This document shows, one piece after another, positions 6,774 through 19,897 of a stretch of DNA of 64,000 nt (position 1 is its first letter; each line of letters begins with the position of its first letter). Under the pieces are notes generated by a model. It did not search any database. It saw nothing but the letters and a program-made list of their open reading frames with translations, and had not been told where the DNA came from. Position numbers and translations under genes: made by a program. This stretch comes from Planctomycetota bacterium (GTDB lineage Bacteria; Planctomycetota; JAJSAM01; JAJVHW01). The stretch is from positions 960,001 to 1,024,000 of the forward strand of contig CBDFJG010000004.1 of assembly GCA_965248445.1 (NCBI GenBank). Direction: 5' to 3'.

Positions 6774-7703
6774 TCAGCTCGCGCGGCGCACCGCGGCGCG
6801 CGCAACAACGCTGATCAGGTCGCCTACGACGACGAGCGCTGCGCCGAGCAGGACGAAGAAGAACATCTCGTCCTGCCGCTGGCCCGCTCGCGCCTCGTTG
6901 ATGACGGCGCCGAGCGAGATCATGCCGAGCAGCCCGAGCACGGTGGCCTCCCGGACGCACGTCTCCCAGCGGTAGAAGAAGAAGAGCAGGAAGCGGTTGA
7001 GCGTCTCGGGGATCAGCGCGAAGAGCGCGATCTGCCTGCGCGACGCGCCGAGTCCGCGCAGCGCGGCGGGGCGGGCCGGCGGGACGTTCTCGATCACCTC
7101 GGCTTGCAGGCGGCCGACGATGCCGGCGTTGTGCAGTGCGAGCGCGATGACCGCGGGCCACGCAGTCACACCCAGCATGCGCACCAGCAGGAACGCCCAC
7201 ACGTACTCTGGAACGGCGCGCAGGAACACGAATAGCCCGCGCGTCACGAACACGACCGCGCCCCACGCCAGGCGGGCCGGGCGCGTCGCCCGTCGCGGAT
7301 CGCGCAGGTACGGGTCGGGACGGGCCACGGTGCGCGCAGCCGGGAGCGCGAGCACAGCGCCGACGATCCCCGCGAGACAGATTGCCACGACGGAGATGTG
7401 GAACGTGCGTGTCAGCGCCTCCCACCCGGGTTCGCGCGTCAGCCGTGCGGCCCAGTCGAATGCGACGCCCCAGTCCCAGTCCTTGCCCTGCAGCGGATAG
7501 GGAACGAGTTCGCCGAGGAAGCGGTCGATATTCGTCAGGTTCCTGTCCGAGAACGCGCTGAGCAGGTCCAGTTCGCCCGAGAGGAAACTCCAGCTCCACG
7601 CGTACGCGGTGAGCGCGGCCAGCGCAATCAGGCTGCGCCGCAAGAACGTGTCCCTAATGCGCCCGCGGTGCAGGTCGGTGATCCGCGCGGTTCGGTCGGT
7701 CAT
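6774..7703 (-). CDS. phnE: PhnE/PtxC-family ABC transporter permease
   Basis: Multiple TM helices, LRAVPE, EAA-like loop, YRWETCVREATVLG; ATG 7703 overlaps the upstream stop. Confidence 0.88.
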   Translation of the reverse strand: MTDRTARITDLHRGRIRDTFLRRSLIALAALTAYAWSWSFLSGELDLLSAFSDRNLTNIDRFLGELVPYPLQGKDWDWGVAFDWAARLTREPGWEALTRTFHISVVAICLAGIVGAVLALPAARTVARPDPYLRDPRRATRPARLAWGAVVFVTRGLFVFLRAVPEYVWAFLLVRMLGVTAWPAVIALALHNAGIVGRLQAEVIENVPPARPAALRGLGASRRQIALFALIPETLNRFLLFFFYRWETCVREATVLGLLGMISLGAVINEARAGQRQDEMFFFVLLGAALVVVGDLISVVARAAVRRAS

Positions 7704-8599
7704 GCGACGAACCTCCGCCGCAGCCGTCCGCTCCACCACTCGAGTAGCAACACGATGGCGCAGAGCGTGTAGAGGTAGGTCCACACCTCGCCGTAGTGGT
7801 TCTCGGACCACGACGCGGAGATGAACTTGCCGAGTGTCTCCGGACCGAAGAACCCGAGCACCGCCGCGGAACGCACGGCGCACTCGAGGCGGTAGAAGGC
7901 GTACGACGCGAGATCGGGCGCGGCGCGGGGGAGCAGTCCGAACACGAAAGCCTGCGAACGCGTCGCGCCGGTCCCCTGGAGCGCGAGCGCCGCGGCGGGA
8001 TCTGCCTCGTCGAGCATTTCGGAGAAGACCTTCGCCAGCGTTCCCGCGTAGGGGATCGCGATCGCGATCACCGCCGCGAGGTTCGTCGTGCCCATCGCGG
8101 CGAGCAGCAGGATCGCCCAGAGGAGCTCGTGGACGGACCGCAGCACCGCGATCAGTCCGCGCGTGCCGATGAACAGCGTCGTGACGATCACCCGCACCAG
8201 CGGCGAACGGATACGCGCCGGATCTCCCCGCCACAGCGATCTCGACGCAAGGAACCCGAGCGGCACGGCGCCGATCACCGCGAGGGACATCGCCATCACC
8301 GCGAGCATCACGGTCCGGTGCGCTCCTTCGAGCGCCTTCCAGATGAGCGGCGGCGCGTTCTCGCGTCCGTAGACCGACTCGTAGTCGAGAGCCGGGGTGA
8401 TCGCACGGCTCACGAACTCGCCGAGGGTGCGGAGATCGCGCGCCCGCGGCAGAAGTCCGTCACCAGGCAGCAGATCCGTCGCCGCCAGCCCCAGGTGAGT
8501 GAACGAGTAGACGCCGACCGCGGCGACCGCGAGAAGGACTCCGCTGCGCGCGGTCAGGAACCGGCCGGCCGCCTCACGCGCCATCGGCGAGGAGCTCAC
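7700..8599 (-). CDS. phnE: PhnE/PtxC-family ABC transporter permease
   Basis: LRSVHELLWA and YRLECAVRSAAVLG motifs; alternative start ATG 8584. Confidence 0.88.
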   Translation of the reverse strand: MSSSPMAREAAGRFLTARSGVLLAVAAVGVYSFTHLGLAATDLLPGDGLLPRARDLRTLGEFVSRAITPALDYESVYGRENAPPLIWKALEGAHRTVMLAVMAMSLAVIGAVPLGFLASRSLWRGDPARIRSPLVRVIVTTLFIGTRGLIAVLRSVHELLWAILLLAAMGTTNLAAVIAIAIPYAGTLAKVFSEMLDEADPAAALALQGTGATRSQAFVFGLLPRAAPDLASYAFYRLECAVRSAAVLGFFGPETLGKFISASWSENHYGEVWTYLYTLCAIVLLLEWWSGRLRRRFVA

Positions 8600-9332
8600 C
8601 GCGGTCGAGCTCGTACAACTCGTGGAACGTTGCGTCGGGGATGTCGCCGGTCGGTGCGTCGAACACCACGCGCCCCGCGCGTAGCCCGACCAGGCGGGGG
8701 AAGAAGGCGCGGGCGAGATTGAGATCGTGCAGCGACACGACGAGCGTCAGTCCGTCCTCCCGCGACAGCTCGGTCAGCAAGCGGACCGTGTCCTTTGCGC
8801 GCGCGGGGTCGACGCTCGAGACCGGCTCGTCGGCGAGCAGCACGGACGGCGACTGGAACAGTGCTCGCGCGATCGCGACGCGCTGCTGCTGGCCGCCGGA
8901 CAAGCGGTCCGTTCGCTCGTAGAGCTTCTCGGGGATTCCGACGCGTTCGAGCAGTGCGTGCGCACGGTCGACGTCCTCGTGCTTCGGCTTGAGCAGCGCG
9001 CGGAGTGTGCCGCCGAACGAGAGCGAACCCAGTCGCCCGGCGAGGACGTTCTGGAGCACCCGCAGGTTGGGCACGAGGCCGAGGTCCTGCGGCACGAAGC
9101 CGATCGTCGACCGCGTGCGGCGCAGCTCCTCCCGTGACAGCCGGCCGAGGTGCTTGCCGTGGGCCACGATGCAACCCTCGGTCGGGCGGATCGTCCCGTT
9201 CAGGACGCGCAGGAGCGTCGTCTTGCCCGAGCCGCTCGGGCCGACGAGGGCAAGAGCCTCGCCGGCCGCGACGTGCAGCGACACGTCATCGACCGCAATC
9301 GTGGAAGGATGGACGACGGATACGTCGTCCAC
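8574..9332 (-). CDS. phnC: PhnC-family ABC transporter ATP-binding protein
   Basis: GPSGSGKT, LSGGQQQRVAIARAL, LADEPVSSVDP, NVLAGRLG. Confidence 0.92.
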   Translation of the reverse strand: MDDVSVVHPSTIAVDDVSLHVAAGEALALVGPSGSGKTTLLRVLNGTIRPTEGCIVAHGKHLGRLSREELRRTRSTIGFVPQDLGLVPNLRVLQNVLAGRLGSLSFGGTLRALLKPKHEDVDRAHALLERVGIPEKLYERTDRLSGGQQQRVAIARALFQSPSVLLADEPVSSVDPARAKDTVRLLTELSREDGLTLVVSLHDLNLARAFFPRLVGLRAGRVVFDAPTGDIPDATFHELYELDRGELLADGA

Positions 9333-9361: not shown

Positions 9362-10252
9362 TCAGCGCTTCATCTCCGGGCGCATCATCCCGAGCTCGAC
9401 TGCCGTGTCCTTGATCTTGTCGAAGTCTGCGTTCTTCGCCTCGATCAGGGACGTGCGCGCGAACGCGGAGAGGAGCTTCTCGTCGGTGATCCCGATCAGC
9501 GCCTTCTGCAGCCGGTCGGTGAATCCGGCACCGAACATCTCGTCGACGTCCGGACGCACGGTCATGTTGTAGTCCGCGTAATCCGGCGTCTTCCAGATGA
9601 CGACGCAGTTGTCCGCCTTGCCCTCCTTCTTCAGCTTGTCGAACGTCTTGTAGGAGAGCGCGCCGACCTTGATGGCGGTGCCGTCATTGACGGCGGCGAC
9701 GGTCTGCGGGTGCGAACCCGAGAACGCCGGCGGCGCGGCGAAGAAGTCCTTCGGTGCTTTCCCAGTCGCCTGGCGAATGAAGTACTCGGGCATCAGGCGG
9801 CCGGACGTCGAACTCTCCGAGCCGAACGTGAACGCGAACACTTGCATCCCGGCCGGGAAGGACTCGCTTGCCGTGAGGCCCGTGTCCTTGTGCGCGATGA
9901 AGTACGAGTAGTAGTTCGGGTCCTCTTTGCCCTGCACGGCCGCGCGGGCACCCGGCACGGCCGCGCGCGCCTGAGCGCCGGTCAGTCCACCGAACCACGC
10001 GAGCTGGATCTGGCCGTTCTTGAACATGTCGACGGACGCCTGGTACTTCTGCGCCGCGACGTACTCGCAGGGCACACCGAGCTGCTCGCTCAGGTACGCG
10101 GCGACCGGGTCGAACTTCGCTTTCAGCTCCGTCTTGTCCTCGCCCGGAATGGCGGAGAACTTCAGAACCGGCTGCTCACTCCCGTCGCCCCCGCATGCCG
10201 CGGTGAACGCCGCGCACGCGGCTACGAGAGTGAGGGTCCTCGCACTTCGCAT
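9362..10252 (-). CDS. phnD: PhnD-family substrate-binding lipoprotein, resembling the putative selenate ABC transporter clade
   Basis: Lipobox TAAC; FSAIP, LAWFGGLTGAQAR, FTFGSESSTSGRLMP, FSGSH; SD GAGGAG at 10266-10261. Confidence 0.85.
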   Translation of the reverse strand: MRSARTLTLVAACAAFTAACGGDGSEQPVLKFSAIPGEDKTELKAKFDPVAAYLSEQLGVPCEYVAAQKYQASVDMFKNGQIQLAWFGGLTGAQARAAVPGARAAVQGKEDPNYYSYFIAHKDTGLTASESFPAGMQVFAFTFGSESSTSGRLMPEYFIRQATGKAPKDFFAAPPAFSGSHPQTVAAVNDGTAIKVGALSYKTFDKLKKEGKADNCVVIWKTPDYADYNMTVRPDVDEMFGAGFTDRLQKALIGITDEKLLSAFARTSLIEAKNADFDKIKDTAVELGMMRPEMKR

Positions 10253-10333
10253 CGAGTCGTCTCCTCAAGATCGTGGACAAGGATCGGGCCGGTGGCTGAA
10301 TCGGCACGGCGCGTCACGGCTCGCGCGGCAGGA

Positions 10334-10363
10334 GGGACGGGAGGAGTGCCTCAGCGACGTCCC
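10334..10363 (-). promoter_or_regulatory. Hairpin sequestering an anti-Shine-Dalgarno sequence (putative attenuator switch)
   Basis: GGGACG (10363-10358) pairs with CGUCCC (10339-10334) and GAGG with CCUC; the 3' side is complementary to the phnD SD region GAGGAGACG. Confidence 0.5.
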
Positions 10364-10449
10364 GGTCGGCCGGCGGGCTGCACCGCCGCGCAGAACCTGC
10401 GCAGCAGCTCGCCGTGGCCTCAGCCGAATCCGGAGCGGGGCATCCTCAT
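10351..10449 (-). CDS. Putative selenocysteine-containing leader peptide MRMPRSGFG-U-GHGELLRRFCAAVQPAGRPGRR
   Basis: ATG just downstream of a promoter-like element; in-frame UGA at 10422-10420 followed by a SECIS-like hairpin; second UGA at 10353-10351. Confidence 0.55.
10383..10407 (-). promoter_or_regulatory. Bacterial SECIS-like stem-loop
   Basis: CUGCUGCGCAG-GUU-CUGCGCGGCGG: 11-bp stem starting at the 13th nt after UGA; apical GCAGGUUCUGC resembles E. coli fdhF GCAGGUCUGC. Confidence 0.6.
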
Positions 10450-10458
10450 GGGGTAGAG

Positions 10459-10488
10459 ACCCTAATCCCGTGGTCGTTGTTCCGTCAA
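10459..10488 (-). promoter_or_regulatory. Sigma70-like promoter for the leader and ABC operon
   Basis: TTGACG (10488-10483), 18 nt spacer, TAGGGT (10464-10459). Confidence 0.55.
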
Positions 10489-10835
10489 CGTCCGGCCTCG
10501 ACGTGCGCGACGACCTCGTCCCCCGGCGCCAGGAGGCACTCGAACAGGTCTTCGACCAGATCCGCGACGTCCTCGACGTCGAGGTCACCGGCGGCGATCT
10601 GCAGGCTGTGGCCGGGATCGCAGCGCAGCACGAACGAGGACTCGGGGAGACTGAAGTCGGCCTCGTCCAAGACGTCGTCGGGATCGCCGATGTGCGGCCA
10701 ATCGACGTGCAGGACTCCGTCCATGTACTGGATGAAGACGTCCTCGTCCTCCGCCGACTCGAACGTGGCAAACTGGGCGCCCTGCGTGCGCCAGACCGTG
10801 TCGAGCGCCTCGAGGATCTGCTCCCGCTGGTCCAT
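10485..10835 (-). CDS. Acidic hypothetical protein (116 aa)
   Basis: ATG 10835 with purine-rich SD; very D/E-rich, globular-looking sequence. Confidence 0.7.
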   Translation of the reverse strand: MDQREQILEALDTVWRTQGAQFATFESAEDEDVFIQYMDGVLHVDWPHIGDPDDVLDEADFSLPESSFVLRCDPGHSLQIAAGDLDVEDVADLVEDLFECLLAPGDEVVAHVEAGR

Positions 10836-10953
10836 CGTCTCTCCCGCTCCCAGCATCGCCGGGCGCGGGGGGCCGCTACAATCCCGCTTCGCCCGGAATC
10901 CTCCTGCCGAACGACCGGTGCCGAACGACGAATCGAACGAGGAGCCTGATCTG

Positions 10954-11379
10954 ATGCCCACGACCCGGATTGCTCTCGCCCTGCTGGGCAGCCTCGCCAT
11001 CTGCCTCGCCTCCTGCTCGAAAGAGACGAAGGAGGTCGACGTCGCCGACCAGCCGGCCGACACGAGCCTGACGCCGGACGCGTCCGGCAAGACAGACGGC
11101 GACCCCAAGGCGTCGTCCTCGCCTGCCGCTCGCGCTCCCGCCCGCGCGCAGTCAGGGGCACAGTCACGGGCAGGCAGCGTCACGCTGACGGTTCGCGGTC
11201 TGCACTGCGAGGACGACTGCGTGCCGCGGCTGACGGAGATGCTGGCGGCAGCGCCTGGAGTGACCTCAGTCGCGGTCGACTACGCCGCGAAGACCGCGAC
11301 GGTGGCGATCTCGGGAGACGTGGCGCCCGAGCGCGTGGCAGCCGCGGTGGGCGGCGGTTTCGTGGCGGCGGTCAAGTAG
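10954..11379 (+). CDS. Heavy-metal-associated (HMA) domain lipoprotein
   Basis: SD GAGGAG, lipobox LASC, linker, then VTLTVRGLHCEDDC...PGV..V.VDY.AKTATV HMA pattern. Confidence 0.85.
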   Translation: MPTTRIALALLGSLAICLASCSKETKEVDVADQPADTSLTPDASGKTDGDPKASSSPAARAPARAQSGAQSRAGSVTLTVRGLHCEDDCVPRLTEMLAAAPGVTSVAVDYAAKTATVAISGDVAPERVAAAVGGGFVAAVK

Positions 11380-11956: not shown

Positions 11957-12133
11957 GCGCTCTTGTCAGGGCCGTCGCGCTGCTCGGTCGCCTGCCTGCT
12001 CCCGTTGGCGCGGCCTCCGCTCGCGCTTGCTCGGCAGCGTCGAACTCCCACCCTTGCGGAATCCCCGCTTTCCCTTCCAATGGGGGATGCGAGTCCTTTG
12101 GTCGGGATTGCCACCAGAAGTAGGGAGGTGGCC

Positions 12134-14161
12134 GTGGGACGCACAGACGGAAGAGCCGCGACGACAGCATTGCTCGTGATGGCGGGCGTGTTCGGTCTCG
12201 CACCGGCGGCACAGACATCGGGCCCCGAGCCGGATCCGCGATACGACGCGAAGGTCGAACTCGGTCGGCGTCTCTTCATGGACCCCGCCGCCAGCAAGTT
12301 CGGCGCGACGTCCTGCGTGTCCTGCCACGACCCCGAGAACGGGTTCTCCGACTCGGCGATCAAGTCGCAGGACGAACAGCAACTGACCGTGCGCCACTCG
12401 CAGGGCCTGCTCGACATCGCCGACGCACCGGACGCCGGGTTCCACTGGGACGCCGAGTTCGCGCGGGTCAGTGATCTCGTTCGTGCGCGCCTCGGTACGC
12501 CCGCGGACTCGCAAGGCCCCGCGGTCGCGCGCTTCGCGTCGTTCGTGAACTCTGCGATCGAAGGGGAACACGCCATCGATGCCACCGCGGCGCGCTCGGC
12601 GCTGCCCGGACTCGCGTCGGGCGGCGGATACGGTCCGGCCACGACGGGCCCGATCACACCCGGCATCGCCGGCACGAAGAGGGGCACGCGTGGCATGCGA
12701 TTCGGCGCGCCCGGGGGCCGCGGATTCCGGGCGACCCCGGCGCCGGACCGGACGTCCGTCCGACGGCTCGCCGCGCACGACCTCTACGACGGCGCCTTCA
12801 AGAGGGCGTTCGGCAGCGCGGAACCGACCATGGACCGCGTCGCCGAGGCGATCGAGGAGTACGTCCTGTCGCTGCGCTCGACGGAGGCCCCGTTCGACCG
12901 CTACATGGACGGTGATGACGACGCGATCTCGGAATCCGCCGAGCGCGGCTTCCACGTCTTCGCCGGCAAGGCGAACTGCGCTTCGTGCCACACGGTGCCG
13001 CTGCCCGGCGGGGCGCGCGCGTTCAGCGACGCCCAGTTCCACAACACAGGGGTAGCGTTCGCGGACGCCCAGCGGCAGCTCGAAGAACTGCGCGGCGGCG
13101 CGAAGAGCAAGGCGGCGAAGCGCCTGCTGGCGCTGCCGAACGTCGACAAGGGCCTCAGCCGGATCGATCTTCGGAAGTCGTCGAACGGGTCGTTCAAGAC
13201 CCCCAACCTGCGCGACGTCGACAAGCGTGCGCGCTACATGCACGACGGCTCGCTCACGACGCTCGAAGAGGTCATCGACTACTACGCGGGCGGCGGCACG
13301 GCGAACAAGCACCTCGACCCGAAGATCGAGAAGCTCGACCTCACCGCACAGGACAAGCAGGACCTGGTGGCGTTCCTGAAGACGCTGTCCGGTGATGCGC
13401 GTCCGGGACTCGGCCGGCTGCCCGAACACCGTCCGTCGGAAACGCACGTGACACTGCGGGATGTCGAGGGTGAGCGTCTCGGGGGAGTCAAGGTGACGAT
13501 CCGCCCGACCGGCGATCGTCTGGCGGGCGCCGACAAGATGCCCGACCCGTTCACGGTGACGACGTTCAAGTCCGGAAAGTTCAGGTTCCCGTTCCCCGCG
13601 TCGACGCACGTAGCTCTCGAGGTCGAGGGCTACGAGATCGCGGGCGGCCGCCTCATCCCGGACTGCGCGCGTGACGTGCAGTTCCTGGCAGTGCCCGACG
13701 ATCTGGTGGCGATCGAGATGTTCGACGAGAGCGGCCAGAACAAGCGGCTGCCCGGAACCCTGGACGTCAATGGCGTCTTCGGCAACGAGAGCAACGAGCC
13801 CGTGACGTTCCGTCGCGTACGCAAGCTCGGAGACCATCACGGCATCTACGCTGCGCACGCATCCGAGGTTGCGGACGACGCCTTCCGGGTCGGAGCACGC
13901 ATCAACATCCGCAACCGCGACTCGGTGCTGATCCAGTTGCACCGCGGCAGGCGGCTGCTCGGGAGCGTCGACCTGCGCGACACCGCGTTGTTCGGCGCCC
14001 CGCAGCGGGGCCGCGGGATCGGCAGTGACGTCGCGCAAGAGCTCCGGAAGGCCATCGAGGTGTTGATGCCGGTCCTGGCGCAGCCTGGGGGTGTCCGCGT
14101 GCCACCGGATCGGCCGGATCGTGTTGACGACGCACCGCCGCCGCCCGAAGATCAGGGCTGA
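12134..14161 (+). CDS. Di-haem cytochrome c peroxidase/MauG-family protein with C-terminal extension (paralogue 1)
   Basis: Signal peptide, LGRRLFMD, CVSCH, FHWD, CASCH, FHNTG, FKTPNLRDV, YMHDGS. Confidence 0.9.
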   Translation: MGRTDGRAATTALLVMAGVFGLAPAAQTSGPEPDPRYDAKVELGRRLFMDPAASKFGATSCVSCHDPENGFSDSAIKSQDEQQLTVRHSQGLLDIADAPDAGFHWDAEFARVSDLVRARLGTPADSQGPAVARFASFVNSAIEGEHAIDATAARSALPGLASGGGYGPATTGPITPGIAGTKRGTRGMRFGAPGGRGFRATPAPDRTSVRRLAAHDLYDGAFKRAFGSAEPTMDRVAEAIEEYVLSLRSTEAPFDRYMDGDDDAISESAERGFHVFAGKANCASCHTVPLPGGARAFSDAQFHNTGVAFADAQRQLEELRGGAKSKAAKRLLALPNVDKGLSRIDLRKSSNGSFKTPNLRDVDKRARYMHDGSLTTLEEVIDYYAGGGTANKHLDPKIEKLDLTAQDKQDLVAFLKTLSGDARPGLGRLPEHRPSETHVTLRDVEGERLGGVKVTIRPTGDRLAGADKMPDPFTVTTFKSGKFRFPFPASTHVALEVEGYEIAGGRLIPDCARDVQFLAVPDDLVAIEMFDESGQNKRLPGTLDVNGVFGNESNEPVTFRRVRKLGDHHGIYAAHASEVADDAFRVGARINIRNRDSVLIQLHRGRRLLGSVDLRDTALFGAPQRGRGIGSDVAQELRKAIEVLMPVLAQPGGVRVPPDRPDRVDDAPPPPEDQG

Positions 14162-19566: not shown

Positions 19567-19897
19567 GCCGCCAGGCTACCTGCGGGGCCTCCGCTGTCCT
19601 CGCACGGCAGCAGTGGGTCGACGAACACGGCGTGAGCCACGATTGCGTCCGGTGGTGCCGGACGCAAGGCGCAAGGGGCGAACGCGACGCCGCAGCGTCG
19701 CTGAGTCTCGGCGACGCAGCAGATGGTGTTACCGGGCGCAACCGCTTGCGGTTGAGCGACTTGCGGCTGCCCGGCGGCGAGACGAGCGCCGCGCGACAGC
19801 GCAGAGCTCGGCTCGCCGACGCGGGCGCAGCCAGAAGCCGCACGTTGCGAGATCGTGGCCCGCGGCGTTCCGCGACACACTGCTATGCTCGTGTGCC

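Follow-up and report, generated by a model that had tools for sequence, protein, structure and literature searches.

A candidate selenocysteine-sensing leader ahead of a putative selenium-uptake transporter operon in a Planctomycetota bacterium

The window analyzed here, a stretch of 64,000 nucleotides (nt) from a Planctomycetota bacterium (GCA_965248445.1, contig CBDFJG010000004.1, positions 960,001 to 1,024,000), carries on its minus strand an ATP-binding cassette (ABC) transporter operon headed by the gene for a PhnD-like substrate-binding lipoprotein. In the leader of this operon, a very short upstream open reading frame (uORF) runs into an in-frame UGA (UGA1); a hairpin (P1) resembling a bacterial selenocysteine insertion sequence (SECIS) follows, and further on a second in-frame UGA (UGA2) lies within another hairpin (P2). 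By its conservation and its position, the arrangement exceeds what chance would give. On balance, it is probable that this is a translated leader that gauges the decoding of UGA as selenocysteine (Sec) and thereby sets expression of the putative selenium-uptake operon; insertion of Sec at UGA1, the effect on the operon, and the mechanism of output are what we infer from sequence comparison. A preliminary description of the leader had proposed a Sec-sensing attenuator that acts by occluding the Shine-Dalgarno (SD) sequence of the binding-protein gene. The sensing module of that proposal finds support in what follows, and its anti-SD output does not.

The leader and the selenocysteine context of its genome

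The letters quoted in the preliminary description (TTGACG-N18-TAGGGT, uORF, both UGAs, hairpins, and SD) all lie on the minus strand where it had placed them (Table 1), with a spacer of 18 nt between TTGACG and TAGGGT. The uORF ATG has no preceding SD, and in all five close family leaders (listed below) a TAnnnT hexamer, read by eye, stands 6 to 10 nt 5' of that ATG; together these features suggest that the uORF is leaderless or nearly so, the mRNA probably starting at or just before the AUG. At the -35-like site, TTGACGGAAC is common to the window leader and that of genome G005.

SECIS elements of the Escherichia coli fdhF type are hairpins that directly follow an in-frame UGA and bear G/U in an apical loop some 20 to 25 nt downstream, and rules of the bSECISearch type look for an apical loop with G (GU) about 16 to 37 nt after the UGA. 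The window leader has this layout: a start-led ORF, an in-frame UGA, and a hairpin immediately 3' of it. P1 is made up of CUGCUGCGCAG, the GUU loop (10396-10394), and CUGCGCGGCGG; its stem, first given as 11 bp, is present and in fact extends to 12 pairs, and the loop at +24 fits the apical-loop rule. A scan of 9800-11000 against Rfam, with E values up to 10, returned no family match and a single chance match to a small RNA at 14.6 bits.

The genes on which Sec decoding depends are present in this genome (5.4 Mb in 4 contigs, about 92% complete), as the Sec-sensing proposal presupposed: selA (502 bits), selB (336), selD (386), and selC, the tRNA-Sec gene (68), all score above their cut-offs, and selD itself carries an in-frame TGA (GGG-U-ACK). 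Across the genome, in-frame TGAs flanked by frames with high GC at third codon positions gave 278 candidates, of which 28 stand in a U-x-x-C or C-x-x-U context. When 17 of these 28 were picked for testing against Pfam (loci L160-L176; selD is L010), a redox-type domain was found to span the TGA in 14, above the Pfam cut-off in 13 of the 14; thioredoxin-like, AhpC/TSA, redoxin, AhpD-type (C-x-x-U), and DUF3179 (W-U-P-L-C) domains are represented. The genome is selenoprotein-rich: in at least 13 genes, the TGA is spanned by a Pfam domain that scores better than the curated cut-off.

The 14 domain-spanned candidates and selD form a validated set of 15 Sec-UGAs with which the leader can be compared. 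A simple SECIS criterion (a hairpin of at least 5 bp whose G-first, GU-containing loop starts 15 to 32 nt after the UGA) describes 8 of the 15, against 4.9% of 20,000 random TGAs. It describes the window leader as well, with a 12-bp stem of a kind seen at 0.03% of random TGAs; the eight fitting validated elements have stems of 5 to 8 bp. A TGA followed by a G-first-loop hairpin with a stem of at least 12 bp occurs 24 times in the 10.8 Mb of strand of this genome. Set beside the genome's own SECIS elements, a comparison envisioned in the preliminary description, the leader hairpin resembles them.

Conservation, reading frame, and recurrence in other lineages

Of 61 related genomes, 16 have an orthologue of the binding protein, and in an order-wide search TIGR04553 scored above its cut-off in 10 of 17 genomes. 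Because the window's binding protein passes the curated cut-off of this family, named "putative selenate ABC transporter SBP," the earlier designation of the operon as a selenium-type importer has a real basis. Conservation of the UGA and hairpin in orthologous leaders, on which the proposal also depended, is borne out: a leader with uORF, UGA, and hairpin precedes the transporter in all seven family genomes in which the transporter was found, and analogues occur in three other lineages. Five of the seven leaders are close to one another (the window's genome, G001, G005, G006, and G007) and two are diverged (G002 and G003); with G015, G162, and G163, they make up 10 loci of this kind.

In the five close leaders, the distance from ATG to UGA1 is exactly 27 nt, the context of UGA1 is TTCNNCTGAG, and the core hairpin reads GCAGGTNCTGC; an in-frame UGA2 follows 20 to 22 codons on, inside GCTGA and ahead of a CTCCTC tract. 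Eight core pairs of P1 are kept in all five, with one compensatory change from C-G to U-A. Among the five genera, identity is 0.60 in the core and 0.65 in the adjacent coding sequence, falling to 0.27 in the rest of the leader and 0.34 in the 100 nt upstream.

A covariance model of the leader core picks out the leader alone in the window's genome, and in a sample of 151 genomes from the phylum its strong matches are confined to the family (all three members sampled, plus the window's genome). Five further matches at about 26 bits (in G020, G021, G057, and G120 and at a second site in G005) were treated as noise. Run over 96 loci, the model gave weak but correctly placed matches in G002 and G003. 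The G003 leader ends its first part in R-G-Y-G-UGA-GGCC and continues with the hairpin CCGCACG-CGUGC-CGUGCGG, 20 codons to UGA2, and then CUCCUCCCGCC; that of G002 reads M-T-L-V-R-P-H-T-UGA and has a 10-bp hairpin. A DNA-pattern search of metagenomes yielded 19 matches (L127-L145), of which 18 are chance occurrences, mostly in long open frames, and one, L143, is a true relative cut off at a contig end. In GC-rich organisms, the 20 nt of the hairpin core also turn up inside ordinary protein genes, as codons for A-Q-V-L-R-G-G.

The reading frame between the two UGAs bears on translation. Their spacing in the five close leaders is 66, 63, 60, 63, and 60 nt (22, 21, 20, 21, and 20 codons). The window leader has gained 3 nt, G006 and G007 have lost 3 nt, and in G005 a -1 and a +1 change compensate each other, displacing the frame over the hairpin alone. 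Owing to these indels and the frame-shift pair, the peptide that follows UGA1 shows no conservation (in G005 the hairpin is read in a different frame), and yet UGA2 stays in frame; the unconserved sequence suggests a by-product peptide rather than a functional protein. At all 10 loci the next in-frame stop is UGA, and it comes 17 to 22 codons on in nine of them. The background chance of such a spacing is 5 to 12% per TGA, and the product over four sequence-unrelated lineages, about 4e-5, is optimistic because the spacing window was set after the data had been seen. Taken together, the frame features argue for ribosomes that read from UGA1 to UGA2.

The analogues outside the family carry hairpins of unrelated sequence at the same place, and the hairpins of G002 and G003 likewise differ from those of the close leaders. 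G015, from another family of the order, has M-F-V-R-P-Y-G-UGA followed by GGAAUGGG-GUG-CCCAUUCC, with the loop at +25 and 20 codons to UGA2. In G162 (locus L060), an unclassified bacterium, M-M-K-R-P-F-R-UGA precedes a hairpin with a GGU-containing loop and then a U6 run, with 17 codons to UGA2. Its relative G163 (L158) has M-S-S-P-F-L-UGA, the hairpin GGCCUGG-CGUGA-CCAGGCC, and 19 codons to UGA2; a run of N from about 110 nt after the uORF masks the rest of this leader and the start of the binding-protein gene. Loops in the diverged and other-lineage leaders are GUG, GUC, CGUGC, CGGGU, and CGUGA, starting 19 to 24 nt after the UGA. The gene selA was found in all six other leader-bearing genomes tested, and also in G162. 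Among relatives of G162, the transporter occurs in 5 of 61; in the upstream regions of G172, G175, and G215, which read as coding by eye, no aromatic-x-TGA uORF was seen. As separate observations on G162, the SECIS-like hairpin (L060, about 1369-1470) runs directly into UUUUUU, like an intrinsic terminator, and TTGACA-N18-TGGTCT lies 9 nt 5' of the uORF ATG.

Enrichment was measured with a strict detector (uORF, TGA, and G-first-loop hairpin) applied to 87 orthologous leaders. It was positive in 10 with TGA, whereas the controls gave 1 with TAG, 0 with TAA, 1 on the reverse complement, and a mean of 0.9 on shuffles; of the 10 positives, eight range from plausible to convincing, one duplicates another, and one probably reflects chance. 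The ending of the uORF peptide in aromatic-x-UGA recurs across lineages as well: P-[FYW]-x-TGA appears in 9 of 86 leaders, against 2 on the reverse complement, 0 with TAG, and 1 with TAA. The arrangement is enriched but lineage-restricted. Six of 80 loci with less than 250 nt upstream and L063, a duplicate of G006, had been left out before counting; L034-L036, outside the first leader set, were examined later by covariance model.

Several candidates were set aside. A first, loose detector was positive in 25 of 74 leaders, mostly from noise, and the strict one was used instead. Two loci from Verrucomicrobia, L080 (about 1210-1260) and L085 (about 1170-1220), were not counted, since a second conserved frame crosses the TGA. 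Both carry, in a conserved segment of the leader, a hairpin with a GGUC loop 20 nt past the TGA, and two conserved frames run across this segment. G020 has EFD-TGA but no in-frame start.

Table 1. Features of the leader and of the transporter operon in the window
Feature	Position	Strand	Basis or remark
ABC permease, PhnE-like, second	6774..7700	-	profile matches; start provisional
ABC permease, PhnE-like, first	7700..8599	-	profile matches
ABC ATPase, PhnC-like	8574..9332	-	TIGR02315 245 bits, below cut-off 266; PF00005
Substrate-binding lipoprotein, PhnD-like fold family	9362..10252	-	TIGR04553 277.7 bits vs cut-off 250; PF12974
SD GAGGAGA of binding-protein gene	10260..10266	-	sequence; gene ATG at 10252
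C-rich, G-poor tract	10318..10347	-	C-G skew 0.37; candidate anti-SD or Rho-loading site
Covariance-model match, model R1	10326..10454	-	95.1 bits, E 7e-19; sole match in 5.4-Mb genome
P2, hairpin around UGA2 (GGGACG:CGUCCC + GAGG:CCUC)	10334..10363	-	3' strand is the CUCCUC tract
UGA2, in-frame second stop	10351..10353	-	sequence and conservation
Read-through segment, 22 codons from UGA1 to UGA2	10354..10419	-	frame conserved, peptide not
P1, SECIS-like hairpin, 12-bp stem, GUU loop	10382..10408	-	loop starts 24 nt after UGA1
UGA1, candidate selenocysteine/termination decision codon	10420..10422	-	UGA in all 10 loci of this kind examined
uORF part 1, nine sense codons M-R-M-P-R-S-G-F-G	10423..10449	-	ATG 10449-10447
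-10-like hexamer TAGGGT	10459..10464	-	9 nt 5' of uORF ATG
-35-like hexamer TTGACG	10483..10488	-	overlaps TGA stop (10487-10485) of small acidic upstream ORF

Around these features, the small acidic ORF at 10485-10835 (minus strand) ends 35 nt 5' of the uORF ATG, and it has no match in Pfam or NCBIfam. In the corresponding upstream region of G005, G006, G001, and G007 a CGCTGA is found, which is read as the end of a gene. A long ORF at 10265-11167, which runs over the leader in a different frame, is rich in Arg, Ser, and Pro and looks like off-frame noise. Divergent from the leader on the plus strand are a lipoprotein with an HMA domain and CxxC (10960-11379), weakly similar to metal-binding selenoprotein families, and a di-heme protein resembling MauG and cytochrome-c peroxidase (11963-14161). 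Elsewhere in the window, the TGA closing an open frame of 527 codons (19633, plus strand) has, 7 nt beyond it, an 11-bp hairpin, TTGCGTCCGGT-GGT-GCCGGACGCAA, that lacks a U-run, and a near-identical hairpin stands after another TGA on the same contig (G000 C4:1461235, minus strand); the hairpin at 19633 may represent a repeat, a terminator, or a Sec site at a C terminus.

Proposed mechanism and competing explanations

The proposed switch can be envisioned as follows. From an mRNA beginning with the uORF, a ribosome would read eight more codons after the start, ending in aromatic-x, and meet UGA1, where the hairpin 12 to 16 nt downstream, like the organism's SECIS elements, would recruit SelB-GTP-Sec-tRNA(Sec). 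With this complex available, Sec would be inserted, P1 melted, and about 20 more codons translated before the ribosome stops at UGA2 inside P2, which would free the C/U-rich 3' strand of P2. With the complex scarce, release factor 2 (RF2) would terminate at UGA1, or the ribosome would stall there, and P2 would stay folded. The freed tract would then lower operon expression through pairing with the SD or through Rho loading, leaving the operon repressed when selenium is replete and expressed when it is scarce. Repression by selenium is somewhat favored over the opposite direction, on physiological logic.

For the output, P2 has a minimum free energy of -13.3 kcal/mol (z -1.3), and its helices are 68 to 80% paired across the family alignment. 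In all six leaders compared, G015 included, the most C-skewed 30-nt window of the leader starts 6 to 10 nt after the first base of UGA2, and these windows rank in the top 0.1 to 4% locus-wide. Within the family the tract forms the 3' strand of P2, and UGA2 lies in the opposite, 5' strand. Rho is encoded in the genome (658 bits), and a C-rich, G-poor tract next to the stop of a uORF is the layout of Rho attenuation of the tnaC and mgtL type. The tract could act by SD masking or by Rho loading, and the latter fits equally well. A scan of 10150-10650 found no intrinsic terminators; mutually exclusive structures ending in such a terminator were not found here, P2 and the alternative pairings being weakly supported. 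Across lineages, the sensing module looks shared and the outputs look different, as in G162 with its U-run after the hairpin.

A number of results weigh against a Sec-sensing leader or against parts of it. A consensus promoter scan of 10150-10650 found no promoters: the letters of TTGACG-N18-TAGGGT are there, as first described, and score below the scan threshold. Among the sequencing runs found to contain this stretch, none listed is an RNA run. Fold z-scores are ordinary, at -1.0 in the leader as a whole (200 nt) and between -1.2 and -2.1 in the hairpins. Covariation, a further expectation for the aligned orthologous leaders, is not significant: 85.9% of cells are paired, against 31 to 56% when the alignment is slid, but there is only one compensatory pair, and 222 of 500 shuffles attain the score. 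The preliminary description had CUCCUC pair with the SD, and it does complement GAGGAG, yet pairing of the SD with the 30 nt that follow UGA2 does not exceed what shuffles give (p 0.08 to 0.36), and the tract is the best SD-pairing window of its leader in only one of six. Folding with ribosome-footprint constraints left SD masking without clear support, the shifts being small and inconsistent: the SD is more probably unpaired with the footprint at UGA1 than at UGA2 in five of six leaders, by only 0.06 to 0.32, and G005 shifts in the opposite direction. The uORF of G003 lacks an in-frame ATG and offers only a GTG, which lies 15 codons upstream, and in G002 the second stop comes 29 codons after UGA1. 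Seven of the 15 validated Sec-UGAs, selD among them, fall outside the simple SECIS criterion. The leader is absent or unrecognized in roughly 77 of the 87 sampled TIGR04553 leaders, and selA also occurs in relatives that have no recognized leader, so that its presence does not discriminate. Finally, "selenate transporter" is a hypothetical-equivalog name for TIGR04553, which records its curators' hypothesis for the substrate.

Some of these points would fit a regulatory uORF or structured leader unrelated to selenium, in which UGA1 is a plain stop, the hairpin is generic, and the signal is another one, such as a metabolite bound by the RNA or translation status. The unremarkable fold energies and within-family covariation agree with it, as do the putative assignment of the transporter's substrate and the ease with which GC-rich DNA makes hairpins (848 TGA-plus-hairpin sites genome-wide). 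We nonetheless regard it as unlikely, given that no Rfam family matches, that both stops are UGA in 10 of 10 loci, that the loop type and distance are those of real SECIS elements in the same genome, that the frame is kept to UGA2, and that, in Sec-using genomes, the arrangement is found again with other sequences ahead of this transporter family.

The hairpin could instead serve as a non-translated operator: by mimicking a SECIS it would bind SelB-GTP-Sec-tRNA and exert direct control over the mRNA, with the uORF and its UGAs incidental. Besides the resemblance to the genome's SECIS elements, there is precedent in the E. coli selAB 5' untranslated region (UTR), where, in the accessible part of bioRxiv 10.64898/2026.03.03.709296, the element stands adjacent to the SD, 3 nt away, whereas P1 ends about 115 nt upstream of its SD. 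Such an operator would leave unexplained the 27-nt start spacing, a UGA1 at SECIS distance in 10 loci, the in-frame UGA2, and the aromatic-x ending; since the frame features also speak against it, we think it improbable, slightly more so than a leader unrelated to selenium.

The same frame features count against a true selenoprotein, small at about 31 residues, that would be encoded on the transporter mRNA and might be a selenium-handling peptide rather than a sensor. A start, a UGA, a SECIS-like hairpin, and an in-frame stop do amount to a complete gene layout, and gene callers would miss such an ORF. The residues after U are not conserved, however, G005 being in a different frame there, and the only pattern is in the eight residues before U; there is neither a signal peptide nor a known domain, and G015, G162, and G163 show no relation in length or sequence, all of which makes a functional selenoprotein quite improbable. 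A chance arrangement in GC-rich intergenic DNA, to which dinucleotide shuffles that fold nearly as well and the coding use of the same 20 nt in ordinary genes might point, is contradicted by core identity of 0.60 against flanks of 0.27 to 0.34, by the single covariance-model match in the genome, and by the strict detector's 10 of 87 against about 1 in controls, and is very hard to credit.

If a Sec-sensing leader is the right reading, it may also belong to something wider. A widespread class of recoding attenuators can be imagined, in which leaderless mini-ORFs ending in aromatic-x-UGA and followed by a SECIS would let the nascent peptide tune a race between RF2 and SelB, so that the ribosome itself would gauge the supply of Sec-tRNA(Sec) and switch selenium-uptake operons, with outputs that differ by lineage (SD masking, Rho loading, or intrinsic terminator), in Planctomycetota and several other phyla. 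This generalization is tentative, and we find it somewhat easier to doubt than to accept.

Relation to known systems and significance

In the attenuators of amino-acid operons (trpL, hisL, pheL), the position of the ribosome on a short ORF, set by the cognate charged tRNA, decides between downstream RNA structures. The window leader is similar in placing a very short ORF ahead of an operon that may serve the supply of one amino acid. It differs in relying on a single UGA that would need SelB and a SECIS-like hairpin rather than on tandem sense codons, in proposing termination versus read-through to a second stop rather than stalling, in having no intrinsic terminator in the region scanned, and in that the genes it would regulate encode a transporter. 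At tnaC and prfB, too, the fate of a ribosome at the UGA stop of a short ORF controls downstream expression, and in tna a Rho-loading site adjoins that stop, as it may here; there, however, the signals are tryptophan and RF2, whereas Sec-tRNA is the proposed signal in the window leader, and the SECIS-like hairpin is found only in the latter. With SECIS elements of the fdhF type, the leader has in common a hairpin 3' of an in-frame UGA, a G/U loop, and a genome with selABCD; unlike them, it lies in an unconserved leader mini-ORF rather than an enzyme gene, and its stem is longer than those of the genome's fitting elements.

The SECIS-like element of E. coli selAB reportedly goes back to Thanbichler and Bock in 2002. 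As far as the accessible part of the recent account goes (bioRxiv 10.64898/2026.03.03.709296), it acts through SelB binding alone; as proposed for the window leader, a leader hairpin of the SECIS type there ties the expression of selenium-metabolism genes to how much SelB-GTP-Sec-tRNA is present, and apart from its greater distance to the SD the window leader differs from what is described there by the start-led ORF and in-frame UGA before the hairpin and by the conserved in-frame second UGA after it. In Treponema primitia fdhF-Sec, according to the portion available of Matson et al. 2013 (PMC3892789), when a Sec UGA is left undecoded, transcription loses its coupling to translation, and completion of the transcript then comes under the influence of the SECIS hairpin. 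Selenium status would likewise be read through UGA decoding in the window leader; the effect described in that portion is inside a selenoprotein gene, whereas here a dedicated leader peptide, whose protein product is not conserved, would act on a separate transporter operon. The window leader represents a Planctomycetota lineage with a distinct architecture of two UGAs, P2, and C-rich tract. No published description of a Sec-codon leader peptide and no paper mentioning TIGR04553 were found in a search outside which subscription journals and supplements lay, and the literature searched yielded no bacterial system dedicated to sensing selenium status in which the Sec-decoding machinery is itself the detector.

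If the proposal is true, leader peptides would sense selenocysteine as they do other amino acids, here by setting recoding against termination, and TIGR04553 transporters would gain the first regulatory evidence that they serve selenium metabolism. Selenopeptide ORFs that gene callers and selenoprotein finders skip would be revealed, and a compact selenium-responsive switch would become available for engineering. The aromatic-x-UGA ending would also make it possible to test how a nascent peptide may bias the choice between termination and Sec insertion.

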